The notes under the pieces are model-generated. The model was given only the letters and a program-made list of their open reading frames with translations, had not been told where the DNA came from and did not search any database. Below are positions 17,046 to 61,876 of a stretch of 64,000 nt of DNA, in pieces (the stretch's first letter is position 1; each line of letters begins with the position of its first letter). The stretch is from Bacteroidaceae bacterium (GTDB lineage: Bacteria > Bacillota > Clostridia > Lachnospirales > Lachnospiraceae), in NCBI GenBank assembly GCA_963596015.1, contig CAVBJS010000007.1, forward strand, positions 7,073 through 71,072, given 5' to 3'. A program made the position numbers and the translations under genes.

Positions 17046-17105
17046 ATTTTTATTCGGCCACGTCCGAGTCAGGCATAGCCGAATAAAAATATATTATTTT
17101 TTAAG
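17046..17105. repeat. Palindromic site P1 (left of ATPase pair)
   Basis: ATTTTTATTCGGC-cacgtccgagtcaggcata-GCCGAATAAAAAT then ATATTATTTTTTAA; homologous to 19854-19907. Confidence 0.85.
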
Positions 17106-18374: not shown

Positions 18375-18495
18375 CATTGCAGCGGTCACCGGCTATATAC
18401 ACCGGAGCCATTCTATTCGCCGGTTTAAAAAATACCGGCTTACCTCCGTCTGCTTATCGCAAGCAGGCGGCGAAAAACCGGCATTTTTATATGCG
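18374..18495 (+). pseudogene. Frameshifted copy of the 3' end of the AraC gene at 26662-27714
   Basis: Aligns to 27596-27719 with a 46 bp identical core (18444-18489 = 27668-27713); small indels break the frame. Confidence 0.88.
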
Positions 18496-18530
18496 CATTC
18501 AAGTTTTATAAAGAGGCCGGCTTTGCCGAC

Positions 18531-19853: not shown

Positions 19854-19907
19854 TTTTATTCGGTCGCGTCCGAGTCATCCGTGACCGAATAAAAAATATA
19901 TTTTTAA
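19854..19907. repeat. Palindromic site P2 (right of ATPase pair)
   Basis: TTTTATTCGGTCGCG-tccgagtcatc-CGTGACCGAATAAAA then AATATATTTTTAA; same orientation as P1. Confidence 0.85.
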
Positions 19908-22573: not shown

Positions 22574-23803
22574 TTATTTGGATGCAACCAGGGTCTTTAC
22601 CGCATCAAAGGTAACATCACTGCCGATCACGCCATCCAGTGTCGCTTTGTCATAGATAGGCGCATCGCCGCTGTCGGAGACAAAGTACTTGTCAAATGTC
22701 TCTACATCGGTTGCAACAAGATATTTCTGGCTCAGAGAAGGTGCATTTCCCTCTTCATCCCGGATAACATTGCCGTTAATGGCATTCATTACCAGGGCAA
22801 ATACCGGGCCGATGGAGGAGGAATACTTGCCGGCAAGGTAAGTGAGCTTGCCGTCTTTCATGGCTGCCTCGTTGGCAGAGGTAAAGGAATCGATATCAGA
22901 GAAGGAAATACCAGCCTCGTTTAATGACTGCGCAAAGAAGGTAGTGGCCATACCCACGGAAATAAAGGCATCGGGGGCTTTCTGAATGGCTGCATTTAAC
23001 TCATCTGTAGTGGTATCGCCGTATCCCTGCAGATAGGAAACCACTTCCACATCACCGGAGATCTTTGACAGATCCACACTCTGATCCTGGAAGATCTGGC
23101 CTACAATACCGTTCATATCATCGGCACCGCCGTAGGTACAGCCAAGGCCTGCCAACACACCTGCCACCCGGTAGACATGCATGGGATTGGGAATGAAGGC
23201 TCCGTAAATGGCTACCTTTGCAACACCCTGGTCCTTATAATATGCGCCCATCTCCTGACCGGCTTCATACTCCGTTTCATTGCTGGGTCCCACCTGGCCG
23301 ACAAAATACTCATAGTTTTTGTAAGTTTCATACTGCTCATCATCCAATACGCCGGACGCCACCGCATAATATACACCGTATTTTTCACAGGTCTCGATCT
23401 GCTGGGCCCGGTCGCTGCTGGAGAAGGAAATAATGGCCTGACATCCCTGGGATGCGAATTTTTCGATGGCGGCTTTCTCCTCCTCTGCGCTGGCAAGCGC
23501 GTCGGTATAGGTAAAGGTCACATCGTAATTTTCTGCAATGTAGTTCTCATAATAATTGCGAAATCCCTGGGCTTCCTCGCCGCTGACATCCGCTACCAGC
23601 ACGCCGATCTTCGCGGCATCTTTGCTCTCCGTTTCCTTCTCTGCGCCGGCATCTGCGCTCTCGCCATCGGCTGTCTTTTCAGACGATGTCTCAGAAGAAA
23701 CAGCCCCAGTGCTTCCTGCATCGGCAGCAGAACCGCATCCGGCTAACATGGAAAGCGCCATCGCTCCCACCATCAATGTACTGATCAGTTTTTTAAATCT
23801 CAT
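22574..23803 (-). CDS. ABC transporter substrate-binding lipoprotein
   Basis: MRFKK signal peptide with lipobox LAGC; lies between two permease genes; ORF extension to 23875 is repeat-derived. Confidence 0.8.
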   Translation of the reverse strand: MRFKKLISTLMVGAMALSMLAGCGSAADAGSTGAVSSETSSEKTADGESADAGAEKETESKDAAKIGVLVADVSGEEAQGFRNYYENYIAENYDVTFTYTDALASAEEEKAAIEKFASQGCQAIISFSSSDRAQQIETCEKYGVYYAVASGVLDDEQYETYKNYEYFVGQVGPSNETEYEAGQEMGAYYKDQGVAKVAIYGAFIPNPMHVYRVAGVLAGLGCTYGGADDMNGIVGQIFQDQSVDLSKISGDVEVVSYLQGYGDTTTDELNAAIQKAPDAFISVGMATTFFAQSLNEAGISFSDIDSFTSANEAAMKDGKLTYLAGKYSSSIGPVFALVMNAINGNVIRDEEGNAPSLSQKYLVATDVETFDKYFVSDSGDAPIYDKATLDGVIGSDVTFDAVKTLVASK

Positions 23804-23876
23804 CTTTTTCCCCTTTCCTGTCTGCGGCACGTGGGGAGAATTTCCCAAAGGCGGATTCTCCGATACCATACGCACC
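23804..23876 (-). repeat. Four-hairpin element, partial copy B (H3 + 5' half of H4)
   Basis: Minus strand GGTATCGGAGAATCCGCCTTTGGGAAATTCTCCCCACGTGCCGCAGACA followed by the RBS. Confidence 0.85.
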
Positions 23877-23973
23877 CAGACGTTAAAAAAATATATCTTC
23901 TATGCAGATGTTTTGTTTCCATCCGCATGGAATATCGTTTCCGTTTTGTACTTTAAATACCTCTGCCATGCTC

Positions 23974-26661: not shown

Positions 26662-27912
<1,251 letters not shown>

Positions 27913-32614: not shown

Positions 32615-32796
32615 AATTTCCCTTTCTTGCCACAGCTTACTGTCTTGCCACAGCTTACTGCGGCGCCGTGAGGAGAATCTCGCGCAGGCGGATTCTCCGA
32701 TATGATATGTATCTATGCGATGTGATCTGTACCTATGTCGTTTAGGGTATAGGTACTGTTTGAAAGAAATGCTCCTGCGCATTTCTTTCAAACTTT
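32615..32796 (-). repeat. Four-hairpin element, full copy C with internal duplications
   Basis: H1-H4 all present on minus strand; 18 bp duplication (32625-32660) and ~20 bp imperfect duplication (32698-32737). Confidence 0.92.
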
Positions 32797-33679: not shown

Positions 33680-33700
33680 TGTTTTCCTTTCTTGCCACAG
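33680..33700 (-). repeat. Minimal remnant of the element 3' end (H4 arm + RBS)
   Basis: CCTTTCTTGCCACAG (33686-33700) is identical to 32621-32635. Confidence 0.5.
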
Positions 33701-33701
33701 G

Positions 33702-34595
33702 TTAGTTTTCTTCATAAACCCAGAATTTCTTTGTGGCGAACAAAACAAGTGTGACGGCACCGATGATCACCAGCATGACCCACGCCATTGCAGAGGCATA
33801 TCCCGCTTTATTAAACATAAAGGACTGCTTGTACATATATACGGCATAAAACAGTGTGGAATCCATGGGTTTGCCGTCGGTGATGATAAGGCTCTGGGTA
33901 AATGCCAGAAATCCGCTGATCATCTGCATCACCAGGTTAAAGAAGATCGTAGGAGTCAAAAGAGGCAGGGTTATCTTGAAAAACCGCTTGGTCCAGTTGG
34001 CACCGTCTACGGAAGCTGCCTCGTAAAGGGTGGTGGGGATCTGCTTTAATGCCGACAAAAAGATCAGCATGGAAGAACCGAACTGCCATACGGCAAGAAT
34101 GATCAATGTCCACATGGCCGTATTCTTAGAGCCCAGCCAGGCATAACTACAATCGATTCCCACGGCCTGCAGCAGGCTGTTGACCACACCGTCTGTTGCG
34201 AACATTCTTTTCCATAAGATCGCCACAGCCACAGAACCACCGATAATAGAAGGAAGATAATACGCTGCTCTGTAAAAGGCAGTGGCCTTTGTGGTCTTAA
34301 AAAGGATCAACGCTACGATCAATGCGAACAAAAGCCGCAGCGGCACAGATACCAATGCAAAGTAAAGGGTTGCCTTTAATGAAGTAAAAAAGGTTTCATC
34401 ATTAGTAAACATGGTAATGTAATTCTTAAGCCCCACAAACCTGGGTGCAGACAAGATGTCATAATCGCACAAGGAATAGTAAAATGACATCACCATAGGC
34501 ACCAACATAAACACGAAGAAACCGATGATAAACGGCAGACTCATTATGATCCCCGCCGTACTTTCTTTATTACATAATTTCCGCAACCTGTTCAT
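33702..34595 (-). CDS. Carbohydrate ABC transporter permease (YesP-like)
   Basis: YYLPS, LYEAASVDGA, ITLPLLTP, GYASAMAW; GGAGG before the second ATG. Confidence 0.92.
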   Translation of the reverse strand: MNRLRKLCNKESTAGIIMSLPFIIGFFVFMLVPMVMSFYYSLCDYDILSAPRFVGLKNYITMFTNDETFFTSLKATLYFALVSVPLRLLFALIVALILFKTTKATAFYRAAYYLPSIIGGSVAVAILWKRMFATDGVVNSLLQAVGIDCSYAWLGSKNTAMWTLIILAVWQFGSSMLIFLSALKQIPTTLYEAASVDGANWTKRFFKITLPLLTPTIFFNLVMQMISGFLAFTQSLIITDGKPMDSTLFYAVYMYKQSFMFNKAGYASAMAWVMLVIIGAVTLVLFATKKFWVYEEN

Positions 34596-39017: not shown

Positions 39018-39370
39018 ACAGATCCTCTTTCACCCTAATCCACATTTCTGCGCAGATTTTTGCTGCGAAGCGACGATTAAAACCGCGGTTTCTCGTTTGC
39101 TTACAGGCATCTTTTTCACACCTTGCTCCCTGTCACCTTCCATTACATTTCATTCATCTTATAAATTCAGCCTACCATTTCACCGCAATTTTGGCAATGT
39201 GTACAACAACTCTGCCAATCGTTTTTTCCATAGGATTTTTCGATAATAAGACCAACGAAACTATTACAACGTAACTGTTGTTGCTGCGCAGTCGCCGACC
39301 AGAGAGCAAAGCGGCGACTGCCTCGTAACGAATTCTGTTTGCCATGTGCAAAGAAAGGATCTTATCTACT

Positions 39371-40447
39371 ATGGAAATGACACTTAGATGGTACGGCTCT
39401 AAATTCGATACCGTAACCTTAAAGCAGATCCGGCAGATCCCCGGCGTAACCGGCGTGATCACCACCCTGTACGACACTGCACCGGGAGAGGTCTGGAGCA
39501 GAGAGCGCATCCGCGCCATGAAAGAAGAAGTAGAAGCAAACGGCCTTCATGTAGCCGGCATTGAAAGCGTCAATGTCCATGATGCCATCAAGATCGGCAA
39601 TGCAGATCGGGATCTCTATATCGATCATTATATCGAAACTCTGGAAAATCTGGGAAAAGAGGACATTCATCTGGTCTGCTACAATTTCATGCCGGTCTTC
39701 GACTGGACCCGGACGGAGCTGGCCAGAAAACGTCCCGACGGCTCTACCGTCCTGGCCTATACCCAGGCTGCCGTGGACGCCTTAAACCCGGAGGATATGT
39801 TCCACTCCATCGCCGGTGATACCAACGGTTCCGTCATGCCGGGCTGGGAGCCGGAACGCATGGAGCATATCAAAGAGCTTTTTGCCATGTACAAGGATGT
39901 GGATGAGGAGAAGCTCTTTGAAAATCTGAAATATTTCCTGGAGCGCATCATGCCGGTCTGCAATAAATATGACATCAATATGGCTATCCATCCCGATGAT
40001 CCCGCCTGGAGTGTGTTCGGCCTTCCCAGGATCATCATCAATCAGAAGAATATCCTGCGCATGATGGAAATGGTGGATGATCCCCACAACGGCGTCACCT
40101 TCTGCTCCGGTTCCTACGGGACCAACCTGGAAAATGATCTGCCCGGTATGATCCGTGCCTTAAAGGGAAGAATCCACTTCGCCCATGTGCGCAACCTGAA
40201 ATTCAATTCTCCCACGGATTTTGAAGAAGCGGCCCATCTGTCCAGTGACGGCTCCTTTGATATGTATGAGATCATGAAGGCCCTGTACGACATTGATTTT
40301 CAGGGCCCCATCCGTCCGGATCACGGCCGCATGATCTGGGATGAAGTGGCCATGCCCGGATACGGACTCTACGACAGAGCCCTTGGCGCCACCTACTTAA
40401 ACGGACTCTGGGAAGCCATCAGTAAGTCTTCCGGAAAGGATCGGTAA
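39371..40447 (+). CDS. uxuA: Mannonate dehydratase
   Basis: MEMTLRWYG, CYNFMPVFDWTRT, AIHPDDP, RPDHGR, GYGLYDRALG. Confidence 0.95.
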   Translation: MEMTLRWYGSKFDTVTLKQIRQIPGVTGVITTLYDTAPGEVWSRERIRAMKEEVEANGLHVAGIESVNVHDAIKIGNADRDLYIDHYIETLENLGKEDIHLVCYNFMPVFDWTRTELARKRPDGSTVLAYTQAAVDALNPEDMFHSIAGDTNGSVMPGWEPERMEHIKELFAMYKDVDEEKLFENLKYFLERIMPVCNKYDINMAIHPDDPAWSVFGLPRIIINQKNILRMMEMVDDPHNGVTFCSGSYGTNLENDLPGMIRALKGRIHFAHVRNLKFNSPTDFEEAAHLSSDGSFDMYEIMKALYDIDFQGPIRPDHGRMIWDEVAMPGYGLYDRALGATYLNGLWEAISKSSGKDR

Positions 40448-40448
40448 T

Positions 40449-40593
40449 AAAATTTGAAAGAAATACCTGATGGCATTTCTTTCAAACTGCATTGATGTCG
40501 AAAACGACATCAATGCATATCGCATCGGAGAATTCGCCTTCGCGAAATTCTCCTCACGGTGCCGCAGACAAGCTGTGGCATAAGGAGGAAACC
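40449..40593 (+). repeat. Four-hairpin element, full copy D
   Basis: H1-H4 between the uxuA stop and the next ATG, ending TAAGGAGGAAACC-ATG. Confidence 0.95.
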
Positions 40594-42210
40594 ATGAAAT
40601 TAAACAGTGAAGGATTACAAAACAGAGCATTTTGGCAGGAGGCTGGCTATCAGCTTCCCTCTTTTGACCATACCGCAGTTTCCGATAAGACAAAGGGAGC
40701 TCCCTTCTGGATCCATTTCGGCGCCGGGAATATCTTCCGCGCGTTTCAGGCCAACGCCCTTCAGAGACTTTTAAACGACAATACCCTGGACCGGGGACTG
40801 ATCGTGGCGGAGGGCTATGATTATGAGATCATCGAAAAGATGTACCACCCCCATGACAATTACTCTATTCTCGCCACTTTAAAAGCAGATGGCTCTATCG
40901 AGAAAACGGTGGTGGGAAGTATCACAGAATCTCTTATCCTGGACAGTCAGGATGTGGCATCCTACAGCCGTTTGAAAGAGATCTTCGCCAATGCCTCCCT
41001 GCAGCTTGCCTCTTTTACCATTACCGAAAAAGGCTACTGCTTACAGGACAGTCAGGGCCGTCCGCTCCCAGATGTCTCCACTGATCTTGCCCAGGGCCCG
41101 GAGGCACCCATCAGTTACATGGGAAAAGTGGCCGCCCTTTTATACCATCGCTTTACCAAGGATGCGCTCCCTCTTGCCATGGTCAGCATGGACAACTGCT
41201 CTCACAACGGGGACAAGCTGAAAGCTGCCATTGTCACCTTTGCAGAAAAATGGGTGGAAAACCATCTGGCAGAGCCTGCCTTTTTAACCTATGTGACCTC
41301 CGATAAAGTATCCTTCCCCTGGACCATGATCGATAAGATCACCCCTCGTCCCAATGCCTCTGTGGAGGAGCTTTTAAGAAAAGACGGCATCGAGGACCTT
41401 GATCCGGTCATTACCGACAGGCATACCTATGTGGCCCCCTTCGTCAACGCAGAGGAATGTGAATATCTGGTCATCGAGGATACCTTCCCCAACGGCCGTC
41501 CTGCCCTGGAAAAAAGCGGCTTTATCTTCACCGACCGGGAAACCGTAGACAAGGTAGAGCGGATGAAGGTATGCACCTGCTTAAATCCTCTCCATACAGC
41601 TCTGGCTGTCTTCGGCTGCCTGCTGGACTACCAACTGATCGCCGAGGAAATGAAGGATCCCACTCTTAAGAAGTTAGTGGAAAGACTGGGCTATCAGGAA
41701 GGACTGCCTGTAGTGACAGATCCCGGCATTTTAAATCCGAAGGAATTTCTGGATACGGTACTTACGGTCCGCATTCCCAATCCTTTTATGCCGGATACGC
41801 CCCAGCGGATCGCCACCGATACTTCCCAGAAAATGGCTATCCGCTATGGGGAAACCATCAAAGCCTACCGGAACTCCTCTGCACTGCAAACCACAGATCT
41901 AAAGATGATCCCTCTTGTATTTGCCGGATGGCTCCGGTATCTCACCGGCCAAAATGACCGCCTGGAAGCATTTTCCATCAGCCCGGATCCCATGGCAGAG
42001 ACTCTTGGCGCCATCGTCTCCGGTGTAAAACTGGATGGTACCTGCGACGCCGTTCAGGCGGAAAGCTTACTGCATCCTATTCTGGAGAATGAAAAGATAT
42101 GGGGCGTCAACCTGTACGAGGCAGACTTAGCCCTTCCCGTCTGCCGTTACTTTGCGGAAATGACCAGCGGTGCCGGTGCCGTCGCTGCCACACTTAAAAA
42201 ATACGTTTAG
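40594..42210 (+). CDS. uxuB: Mannitol dehydrogenase family protein (likely D-mannonate oxidoreductase)
   Basis: WIHFGAGNIFRAF, FTITEKGY, SMDN, MIDKITP, LNPLHT; true start MKLNSE after AGGAGG. Confidence 0.8.
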   Translation: MKLNSEGLQNRAFWQEAGYQLPSFDHTAVSDKTKGAPFWIHFGAGNIFRAFQANALQRLLNDNTLDRGLIVAEGYDYEIIEKMYHPHDNYSILATLKADGSIEKTVVGSITESLILDSQDVASYSRLKEIFANASLQLASFTITEKGYCLQDSQGRPLPDVSTDLAQGPEAPISYMGKVAALLYHRFTKDALPLAMVSMDNCSHNGDKLKAAIVTFAEKWVENHLAEPAFLTYVTSDKVSFPWTMIDKITPRPNASVEELLRKDGIEDLDPVITDRHTYVAPFVNAEECEYLVIEDTFPNGRPALEKSGFIFTDRETVDKVERMKVCTCLNPLHTALAVFGCLLDYQLIAEEMKDPTLKKLVERLGYQEGLPVVTDPGILNPKEFLDTVLTVRIPNPFMPDTPQRIATDTSQKMAIRYGETIKAYRNSSALQTTDLKMIPLVFAGWLRYLTGQNDRLEAFSISPDPMAETLGAIVSGVKLDGTCDAVQAESLLHPILENEKIWGVNLYEADLALPVCRYFAEMTSGAGAVAATLKKYV

Positions 42211-50964: not shown

Positions 50965-51108
50965 AGTTACCTTTCTATGCCGCAGCTTGTCTGCGGCAAC
51001 GTGAGGAGAATTTCGCGCAGGCGAATTCTCCGATGCGATCCGCACCTATGACGTTTACGGCATAGGTGCCGTTTGAAAGAAATGCTATCAAGCATTTCTT
51101 TCAAACTT
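50965..51108 (-). repeat. Four-hairpin element, full copy E
   Basis: H1 identical to copy A; H2 GCACCTATG..CATAGGTGC; ends AGAAAGGTAACT-ATG. Confidence 0.95.
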
Positions 51109-51175
51109 GCCTTTCTATGCCGCAGCTTGTCTGCGGCAACGTGAGGAGAATTTTCGCGCAGGCGAATTCTCCGAT
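51109..51175 (-). repeat. Four-hairpin element, partial copy E' (H3+H4), head-to-tail with E
   Basis: 51110-51175 matches 50970-51034 apart from one extra base. Confidence 0.93.
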
Positions 51176-51186
51176 AAAATCTAAAC

Positions 51187-57176: not shown

Positions 57177-57261
57177 ACTTACCTCCTTGTGCCACATTGA
57201 TGACGTTCACCGCATCAATGCTGTTTGAAAGAAATACCATAGAGAATTTCTTTCAAACTTT
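57177..57261 (-). repeat. Four-hairpin element, internally deleted copy F (H1+H2 joined to H4 tail)
   Basis: Minus strand GTTTGAAAGAAAT..ATTTCTTTCAAAC AGCATTGATG..CATCAATG TGGCACAAGGAGGTAAGT-ATG. Confidence 0.9.
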
Positions 57262-60324: not shown

Positions 60325-60373
60325 AAAAGAATGCTAAGTCGCAGGTTTTCGTCCTGCGCTTAGCATTCTTTTT
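60325..60373. terminator. Bidirectional intrinsic terminator
   Basis: AAAAGAATGCTAAGtCGCAGG..CCTGCGCTTAGCATTCTTTT. Confidence 0.85.
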
Positions 60374-60377
60374 TATC

Positions 60378-60584
60378 TTAATCCCTTCTTAAATTCTGTT
60401 TAAATCTGTCTTGCTTCTGCCTTAATTCTATCTTGAATCCACCTTGATTCTATCTTGATTCTGTCTGGAATCCACCTTGATTCTATCTTGTTTCTGTCTG
60501 GAATCCACCTTGATTCTATCTTGTTTCTGTCTTGAATCCATCTTGATCCTGTCTTGGATCCATCTTGTTTCTGTCTTGATCCTG
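60378..60584. repeat. 11 bp-unit tandem array with 33 bp higher-order period
   Basis: GAATCCACCTTGATTCTATCTTGWTTCTGTCTK at 60435, 60468 and 60501, plus degenerate 11-mers on both sides. Confidence 0.9.
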
Positions 60585-60628
60585 AAAGTCAGATCAGGCT
60601 TCTATCCGTGGCTCTCATATCAATAAAA

Positions 60629-61810
60629 TTAATAATTCTCCTCATGTACTTCAAAATAGCTCTGGGGATGATTGCATACAGGACATACTTCCGGTGCCTT
60701 GGTACCTACCACGATATGGCCGCAGTTACGACATTCCCATACCTTCACTTCGCTCTTTTCAAACACCTGCGCGGTTTCAATATTCTTAAGCAGGGCACGA
60801 TATCTCTCTTCATGATGCTTCTCGATGGCACCTACTGCTCTGAACTTTGCAGCCAGCTCCGGGAAGCCTTCTTCCTCGGCGGTCTTGGCAAAGCCTTCAT
60901 ACATATCCGTCCACTCGTAATTCTCACCCTCTGCAGCGGCTGCTAAGTTTGCTTTGGTATCGCCGATGCCGGCCAGTTCCTTGAACCACATCTTGGCATG
61001 CTCTTTCTCATTGTCAGCGGTCTTTAAGAATAATGCGGACATCTGCTCATAGCCTTCCTTCTTGGCCACAGATGCAAAATAGGTATACTTATTTCTTGCC
61101 TGAGACTCTCCTGCAAATGCCTCCTGTAAATTCTTCTCTGTCTGTGTTCCTGCGTACTTGTTTGCTGCCATTTTTGTTTCCTCCGTTTTCTTTACTATTT
61201 TTTCAAAATCTGACGCCGGGTGCTTGCACAAAGGACATATGAAATCCTCCGGCAATTCTTCCCCTACATATTCATACCCGCAGATCCTGCACCGCCATAT
61301 GGTCTGTCCGTCCTGGGTTTTCCCAACTGCCTGAGGCTGGGGTTTAATATTACTCTGATAATATTCATAGGTGACTGAAGGAATATCGCTCAGGACCTCC
61401 ATATCCGTGATCTCACCGATGAACATGGTATGAGATCCTAAATCCTCTGTTTTATTTACGGTTACGGAAATATAAGCATTGGTGCCTTCCGTAATGTAAT
61501 AAATGCCATTGGTACCTCTTGCGCATTTTTCAAATGATGCAAACTTATCTGTCTCTTTGCCGGACTGAAAGCCGAAATGTTTGAACAGGTCAAAGGATGC
61601 TTTCCGGCTTAAGACAGAAACGGTAAATTTACCGGTCCTCTCGATCATATCATGGGTGTAATTTGCCTTGTTGACACAGATACTGAGCTGGTTTGGCTCG
61701 GAAGCCGCCTGAATGGCAGTATTGATGATACAGCCGTTGTCTTTTTCCGCTTCCCTGGCCGTCAGCACAAAAAGGCCGTAGCTCAGCTTATACATTGCTT
61801 TTTTATCCAT
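60629..61810 (-). CDS. Flavin reductase - rubredoxin - rubrerythrin fusion
   Basis: [16 protein letters not shown] (flavin reductase), CRICGY..CPLC (rubredoxin), [16 protein letters not shown] + CRNC..CPVC (rubrerythrin). Confidence 0.9.
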
Positions 61811-61876
61811 ACTTTTCCTTTCTTGCCGCTATATATTACGACAGTGTGAGGAGAATTTTGTGAAGAAAGATTTCCT
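61811..61876 (-). repeat. Four-hairpin element, degenerate copy G (H3/H4 + RBS)
   Basis: Minus strand AAAATTCTCCTCACACTGTCGTAATATATAGCGGCAAGAAAGGAAAAGT-ATG. Confidence 0.65.

Follow-up and report, generated by a model that had tools for sequence, protein, structure and literature searches.

The window analyzed here, a stretch of 64,000 nucleotides, contains two adjacent genes separated by a compact structured element. The first, uxuA, encodes a mannonate dehydratase (39344–40447, + strand; PF03786, matched from residue 10 of the ORF), and the second is a uxuB-like gene of the mannitol dehydrogenase family (40594–42210, + strand; PF01232/PF08125). The interval between the uxuA stop codon and the uxuB-like ATG at 40594 is filled by one full unit of a repeat (copy D, 40449–40593, + strand), in which four hairpins are followed by an SD and a spacer in the order H1-H2-H3-H4-SD-spacer. 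Copy D was assigned from its sequence and from a covariance model match of 141 bits (40449–40588). H1 (40452–40487, +) is a 16-bp hairpin closed by a TGAT loop at 40468–40471, and its 5′ foot reads TTG-AAA-GAA, a mimic of a start codon in SD register. H2 (40489–40516, +) is a 12-bp hairpin with the strongest covariation of all the stems. The imperfect, sequence-conserved hairpin H3 (40521–40558, +) consists of an upper stem (40527–40553), a bulged A, a CTNC loop, a TC/TC internal loop and a covarying lower stem of 3 bp. H4 (40560–40580, +) is an 8-bp hairpin with a G40564·T40576 wobble on the + strand. The SD and spacer that precede the ATG at 40594 (TAAGGAGG; 40581–40593, +) are brought by the element itself. 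The four consecutive hairpins give a folding z-score of about −9.6 on either strand. No sigma70-like promoter site was found in copy D, the sole copy scanned for one.

Among 26 relatives in which uxuA and uxuB are adjacent, the two genes lie no more than about 40 nt apart in 14 and 65–188 nt apart in the other 12. Several relatives (L045–L056) carry other structured inserts of 100–190 nt before the uxuB start, some of which end in GCGGCATGGAGG, suggesting that they represent further repeat families.

Other copies of the repeat in the window vary in completeness. Copy A (401–539, +; covariance model match) is full, has a 13-nt H4/SD tract repeated upstream, and leads the gene of an ABC solute-binding protein (ATG at 551). 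The remaining copies lie on the − strand. Copy B (23800–23880) is truncated at its 5′ end and retains H3, a partial H4 and the SD. Copy C (32618–32796) contains an internal duplication and a doubled H4 arm. Copy E (50970–51109) has a partial H3-H4-SD copy ahead of it, head-to-tail, the two together spanning 50970–51176. In copy F (57182–57261), H1-H2 is fused to an H4 remnant and SD, without H3. A decayed 3′ fragment (61811–61865) precedes a flavin-reductase/rubrerythrin gene, and a remnant consisting of the H4 right arm and SD (33680–33704) lies ahead of an ATG. Unrelated repetitive features also occur in the window: a tandem array of ∼11-nt units (TCTRTCTTGAW-like; 60361–60613) adjoins the end of the gene at 60629–61810, and two small hairpin repeats are present in two copies each (18427–18498 and 27651–27722; 17048–17089 and 19854–19895).

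An initial annotation of the window had drawn attention to paired base changes in these hairpins. All of the arm sequences that it quoted were located in the window. The H2 arms are CATTGATGACG/CGTCATCAATG in copy A, CATTGATGTCG/CGACATCAATG in copy D, GCACCTATG/CATAGGTGC in copy E and GTACCTAT/ATAGGTAC in copy C, and the H3 arms of copy C are GGAGAATC/GATTCTCC. What it overlooked is the main feature, namely that the element is an oriented repeat, located at start codons and terminated by an SD.

To describe the repeat across G000, the genome from which the window derives, a profile was built from 90 full copies. The search returned 336 matches, or 313 once overlaps were removed, at 271 loci (237 single, 26 double and 8 triple), and all multiple copies are arranged head-to-tail. 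The unit is ∼140 nt long and modular in the order H1-H2-H3-H4-SD. Its 3′ end is intact at 240 loci and absent at 31. At 215 of the 240 intact loci, a start codon that opens an ORF of at least 60 aa lies 4–31 nt past H4, and in 164 of these 215 the distance is 12–14 nt. The corresponding rate is 7.4% at random positions and 21/254 on the antisense side. Overall, the repeat occupies about a tenth of the gene starts of G000 (∼2,060 genes, crudely called). The genes that it leads are mutually unrelated. They include smpB, as well as genes that we take to be clpP and dapB from sequence resemblance. Of the 142 copies that bear H3 and lie clear of contig edges, both H1 and H2 are present in 76, only H2 in 15, only H1 in 6 and neither in 45. 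By structure, 60 of the 142 therefore lack H1, so the 5′ truncation is real.

The H3 pattern is present in 30 of 86 genomes of the genus, with 151, 126 and 156 matches in G000, G002 and G015, respectively, and covariance model matches occur in at least 60 of the 86 (with up to 37 candidates scored per genome). The H3 pattern had no match in 399 genomes of the same order outside the genus. Viral contigs, searched with two patterns, and plasmids gave no match to the repeat. No Rfam family matched the window at gathering level, and the matches near copy D are chance matches.

Covariation was quantified in 232 distinct copies (from the 236 of 313 matches that score at least 45 bits). Alternative Watson-Crick pairs fill 269 of 1823 pair cells in H2 (14.8%), 169 of 1836 in H1 (9.2%), 65 of 1700 in H4 (3.8%) and 26 of 2451 in upper H3 (1.1%), with 121 of 599 in the lower stem of H3. 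In a set of 50 copies from multiple genomes, 39 of 50 pairs vary on both sides, a value reached by none of 500 shuffles; the invariance of H3 in this set is partly built in, since the set was chosen partly by the H3 pattern. On a tree of 97 loci, in which recombination among copies was ignored, pair-to-pair changes number 65 over the 16 pairs of H1, 33 over 10 in H2, 13 over 7 in H4 and 7 over 11 in upper H3. The mean frequency of the top base is 0.83–0.86 in H1 and 0.95–0.96 in H3. Genus-wide, the H1, H2 and H4 stems are almost wholly replaceable, while the GAT loop of H1 and H3 are kept (again in a set chosen partly on H3). The paired changes are real, and covariation across the genomic copies far exceeds chance. 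The proposal in the initial annotation that H2 is constrained in shape and not in sequence is supported. Its view of H1, as a hairpin with near-invariant arms and a variable loop that may be a sequence-constrained protein site, needs to be revised. Near-invariance of the arms holds for the window copies only, as H1 covaries heavily genome-wide; the loop, YGAT, is conserved (GAT in 103 of 130); and the fixed part of the element is H3 together with the H1 loop.

The manner in which the paired changes arise is informative. In H1, the terminal branches carry 48 double changes vs. 118 single breaks, and many double changes are blocks of 2–5 bases; TTTGA, for example, becomes TCAGA and the other arm mirrors it perfectly. 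This proportion of double changes exceeds what two separate point mutations would give, and copying of one arm from the other is the likely source of the block-wise paired changes. According to the initial annotation, arm copying with no strand bias, if it fully explained the paired changes, would refute the maintenance of the hairpins as structure. This is borne out in part: there is no wobble bias and there is an excess of double changes, but features of H3 escape correction. The bulged A is present in 204 of 217 copies and the two sides of the TC/TC internal loop in 198 of 217 and 196 of 222, while a C·T mismatch in H2 is found in 48 of 156. As H3 and these irregularities persist despite correction, selection is still needed to explain them. 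No long-range, pseudoknot or H3 loop-SD covariation was detected in 351 copies from several genomes, where the top-scoring columns fall within hairpins or between neighbours. Capture of the H1 left arm from the local gene start was considered and rejected (58 matches vs. 58.5 expected). More generally, strong covariation in palindromic repeats can reflect arm copying and is, by itself, no proof of a functional RNA.

Which strand folds was addressed by counting wobbles, as suggested in the initial annotation. G·T and A·C events counted on the tree stand at 149:129 (p = 0.25), indicating no bias. An A·C excess in the lower H3 stem of the G000 copies (50:5) is due mostly to a single variant, and folding of the minus strand, as judged by lower-H3 wobbles, did not replicate in two partly overlapping sets (12:11 and 14:14). 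H3 folds better on the minus strand, and H4 does so on the plus strand, the latter in 112–135 of 181 copies. For H4, the change from CTGCGGCA to CTGTGGCA places the G(40564)·T(40576) wobble on the transcribed strand and not on the opposite one; the strand had been inverted, since in RNAfold the stem survives on + and is lost on −. The conserved loops read on the minus strand as YTTR, GNAG and tandem GA, motifs that stabilize hairpins, a hint in favour of antisense folding.

Evidence for mobility comes from orthologous gene starts, which were compared between G000 and 1.2 Mb of the ∼2.6 Mb (∼46%) of G002. Both orthologues are occupied at 34 of 73 and 31 of 89 starts, and no copy was detected in the other genome at 39 of 73 and 58 of 89, some of these holding H4 remnants. 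In three clean cases (C3:84717, C6:43537 and C9:24687), a full unit stands a few bases before the ATG and the old SD remains upstream. At L162, L210 and L191, a truncated or multiple unit is found in place of 3–33 nt of the leader. The junctions are not base-exact, because the empty sites belong to a different species (∼78–97% identical in coding sequence). Across the clean pairs (66 out of 93), filled and empty sites are 65% identical at position −1 and agree at random level by −10, vs. 69–81% between two empty sites (353 controls), which places the 3′ junction within the SD-ATG window. The junction is scattered over ∼10 nt and the 5′ end is variable. Targets share certain features. A G is present at −7 in 74% of the empty targets vs. 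40%, the target SDs match the register of the element, and an A is present at +3 in 95 of 154 targets vs. 157 of 353 controls (p = 5×10−4). The 5′ end of the unit lies in a similar context: an SD-like 4-mer directly precedes H1 at 80 of 107 loci, vs. 32 and 34 of 107 farther upstream, and the foot of H1 is TTG in 51 of 91. The junction between units thus resembles a gene start.

The repeat has been active recently. Seven full copies are 98.5–100% identical at unlinked loci, and one truncated copy that does not adjoin a contig end is likewise identical. The seven youngest sites are C30:18684, C3:88810, C5:33367, C66:11496, C6:32316, C26:12431 and C50:17076. At 66 of 130 full loci (raw count), the copy's own 3′ tract is repeated upstream (8–103 nt); these upstream tracts begin mostly at model positions 110–129 (42 of 66), and young truncated copies begin mostly at positions 69–81 (39 of 62). 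In 19 of 30 tandem pairs, the neighbours are each other's closest match among all loci, and some array variants, including a unit without H4, are confined to one locus. Copies at co-occupied orthologous starts are similar only at random level (mean rank 0.51; top in 2 of 34), so these starts have been rewritten since the species split. Young copies also occur before ATGs that do not belong to genes, including two of the youngest (C6:32316 and C5:33367); at 9 of 15 non-gene, non-array loci an ATG lies 11–15 nt past H4, vs. a background of 15% (p = 7×10−5, hand count). Selection alone would not be expected to give this pattern, which favours targeting. A preference for genes on the leading strand is weak (123/140 vs. 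1226/1505, p = 0.065, by a crude proxy). There is no target duplication of fixed length, the unit ends are not complementary, and terminal inverted repeats are lacking. A MITE of a DDE-type IS was rejected on the last and first of these grounds. Taken as a whole, we consider it very probable that the element is a mobile repeat targeted to gene starts.

Copies appear to leave translation signals accessible. Compared to 150 control genes, both the SD (0.62 vs. 0.48) and the start codon (0.68 vs. 0.48) are predicted to be more open. Pairing between the right arm of H3 and the SD is predicted to be possible in 11 of 64 copies and is part of the lowest-energy fold of copy D. A relay ORF of the MIRU type was rejected: the stop codons reached from the H1 codon are scattered, with 14 of 91 within −20 to +3 and 11 of 91 in-frame fusions.

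We propose, with a probability of roughly 0.5, that the element is a non-autonomous repeat whose folded single strand, probably antisense DNA, anneals to start regions and overwrites the native leader. A trans-acting protein would recognize the invariant H3, which its sequence conservation makes a likely candidate for the recognition site, and would release or copy a unit or a multimer, probably as the antisense DNA strand. The unit junction, SD-AAGT-TTG-AAA, would mimic a gene start, SD-AANN-ATG-AAA, and the strand could anneal there over ∼15 imperfect bases. A full unit would result where the other end is joined to the native SD upstream; where it is joined at a short homology within a single-stranded linker, the product would be a 5′-truncated copy with native leader deleted. 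An occupied site would offer longer homology and might be targeted again, giving rise to arrays and rewriting. Fold-back during copying, in which one arm of H1 or H2 complements the other, may generate most of the 'compensatory' changes, and H3 would be maintained by selection for recognition. Since translation could continue from the newly exposed SD, insertions would be tolerated.

No mobilizing enzyme that adjoins or tracks with the repeat was found by targeted family searches of the draft assemblies. Y1_Tnp, RVT_1 and GIY-YIG domains do not track with the repeat across the 86 genus genomes, as judged by eye. Rpn, the IS110 C-terminal domain, HNH and Rep_trans have no match in G000; nor does Y2_Tnp, whose control likewise matched nowhere. 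Ordinary host genes, or no gene at all, were found at 20 low-copy loci and at 15 pairs with close spacing.

One explanation, which we regard as unlikely, is SINE-like retroposition, in which a borrowed reverse transcriptase, primed at the start region, copies the mRNA. It would account for the fixed 3′ end, the 5′ truncation at the feet of hairpins and the fold-back correction of arms, and has the same geometry as the single-strand annealing model. Within operons the repeat is found on the sense strand, and the truncation points (69–81 and 110–129) are where a polymerase starting from the 3′ end reaches the next stem. However, these points also coincide with single-stranded linkers and are blurred by the variability of H2, and reverse transcriptases fail to track with the repeat, with no match in G002 or G018. 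Those of G000 comprise only a prophage enzyme of the DGR type and a group II intron-like fragment. The fragment (L007:1393–1875; G000:C69) is located 3′ of smpB, ∼1.2 kb from the copy that leads smpB. The prophage enzyme belongs to a likely diversity-generating retroelement (L006:850–2391; G000:C95), which has a 332-aa ORF ending in a variable region, a template-like repeat and a reverse transcriptase of 365 aa. By analogy, the msDNA-like repeats of Nannocystis, known here from titles cited in PMC6868368, are a possible precedent for retroposition.

It is also improbable that the element is a REP/BIME- or NTS-like repeat cut precisely at the foot of H1 by a single-stranded DNA enzyme (HUH TnpA/RAYT or Ssn GIY-YIG) that has been lost or lies outside the assembled sequence. 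The conserved imperfect hairpin with its bulge is in keeping with such an enzyme, as are the locally identical arrays, including the single-locus unit without H4. Several results oppose it. The 3′ junction spans ∼10 nt, which is not expected for one cut. RAYT-like matches are absent from G000 and G002, and the RAYT-like genes of the genus (L248–L266; 190–315 aa) are flanked by their own unrelated repeats, for example the ACCCCAGAGGTC and GACAGGGGACGG families. Among 20 RAYT-like and 31 IS200-like loci, none has the repeat on both sides of the gene; a copy lies ∼130 nt upstream of one RAYT (L251) and 1.6 kb from another (L249). In the draft assemblies, the search for a single-domain GIY-YIG protein (PF01541) found only a 659-aa match in G000 and matches of UvrC length in G002 and G015. 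G000 encodes a single IS200 TnpA, where a contig ends, and a single TnpB, and the repeat accompanies neither of them. These two (L005:430–540 and L328, at the end of G000:C15 and the start of C54) are possibly parts of one broken IS605-type element.

We think it quite improbable that no dedicated factor exists and that host recombination or slippage shifts leaders through the similarity between SD and ATG contexts, the copies being kept for an open SD and for protection of the mRNA 5′ end. The empty enzyme search, the predicted accessibility of the SD and the presence of core genes such as smpB among those led are consistent with this. It does not explain why the sequence of H3 is fixed or why some genomes of the genus have no detected copy and others hundreds, and young copies before non-gene ATGs bring no benefit to translation. 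Finally, a cis-regulatory RNA (a riboswitch or protein-bound leader) with stems under selection for RNA structure, close to the view taken in the initial annotation, would fit the strong covariation and the possible pairing of H3 with the SD, but is very improbable in light of the unrelated downstream genes, the truncated copies, the rapid gain, loss and rewriting, and the lack of loop-SD or long-range covariation, of a sense-strand wobble bias and of an Rfam match.

A literature search, with subscription journals mostly outside its coverage, found no published account of this repeat. The closest known systems are MIRU and the Neisseria REP2. MIRUs, described in Supply 1997 according to PMC12548453 and PMC3184786, are outlined in the same two sources as elements of 40–100 bp that carry an ORF coupled at −4, together with 4-bp direct repeats and imperfect terminal inverted repeats. 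As in our repeat, small multicopy units sit at start codons in the orientation of the gene, which they affect little; both filled and empty sites occur, and no enzyme of their own is known. Our repeat differs in its 140-nt length, its own SD and its variable 5′ end, and it has neither a relay ORF nor a duplication of fixed length. REP2 is presented in PMC3184786 as a repeat of ∼25 copies with two hairpins and a promoter, linked to co-regulation. Going by the descriptions there, REP2 and the Borrelia IR-A/IR-B resemble our repeat in size (120–150 bp), internal stem-loops, a 3′ RBS and a position directly before ORFs, and neither is described as having terminal inverted repeats, which are also lacking here. 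The present repeat, in contrast to REP2, has ∼300 copies, four hairpins, arrays and truncations, and copy D lacks a promoter-like site.

Other families are less similar. REPs, per PMC3733652, are 20–40 bp long, tagged at one end and found mostly 3′ of genes, and those of the CGTC group are reported there without a linked transposase. Our repeat shares with REP/BIME elements the high copy number, the hairpins and the tandem arrays, and with CGTC REPs the lack of a linked transposase. It differs in its 140-nt unit, in the absence of a terminal GTAG/CGTC tag (CGTC occurs only inside H2), in its strictly 5′ position and in the absence of RAYT from the high-copy genomes G000 and G002. The NTS/SRM repeats associated with Ssn are likewise oriented hairpin repeats in hundreds of copies (PMC11893778), and the strand-specific single-stranded DNA site of Ssn, as given there, could serve as a model for H3. 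No small GIY-YIG gene accompanies our repeat, however, and no tie to start codons is described in the account of NTS drawn from PMC11893778. The pneumococcal BOX, RUP and SPRITE elements, as characterized in PMC3049150, are similarly modular, transcribed and interspersed, with variable arrays, but that source describes IS-like terminal inverted repeats (BOX) and over-representation between convergent genes, the opposite of what is seen here. The Clostridiales-1 RNA (RF01699) is a repeat-like motif with several stems from gut clostridia, but is depicted in PMC2864571 with a closed multi-way junction and a GCUUGC loop. Its Rfam model fits a separate locus of G000 and not the repeat (49.5 bits; L028:1501–1625, G000:C19:21363–21487).

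By targeting the RBS and bringing a replacement, a selfish repeat would gain a nearly costless route into operons. About 10% of gene starts depend on SDs derived from the element, and the turnover of these SDs between sister species could retune translation across the genome. A more far-reaching interpretation, doubtful at present, is that the element is a bacterial SINE-like parasite: an orphan that homes to translation starts via a built-in decoy start, is copied from its 3′ end with truncation at the 5′ end and keeps rewriting the RBSs of some 10% of genes, among them core genes. If so, its copying system would be a natural tool for writing DNA at start codons. For the question of how orphan repeats such as MIRU, REP2 and CGTC REPs spread when no enzyme is linked to them, the repeat offers a tractable system, as its dated copies number in the hundreds and empty orthologues are available for comparison.

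A sister family with the same four-hairpin plan is present in G000 (C1, C4, C13, C33, C41, C43, C55 and other contigs) and in G002, with one metagenome match. Its H1 loop is mostly YGAT and a GTG is found at the H1 foot. Its H3 differs, with a GAGAAT/ATTCTC core in common, and its 3′ end reads CTGCTC[AG]GAAA[AT]G. A start codon follows 42 of 44 anchors of this family.
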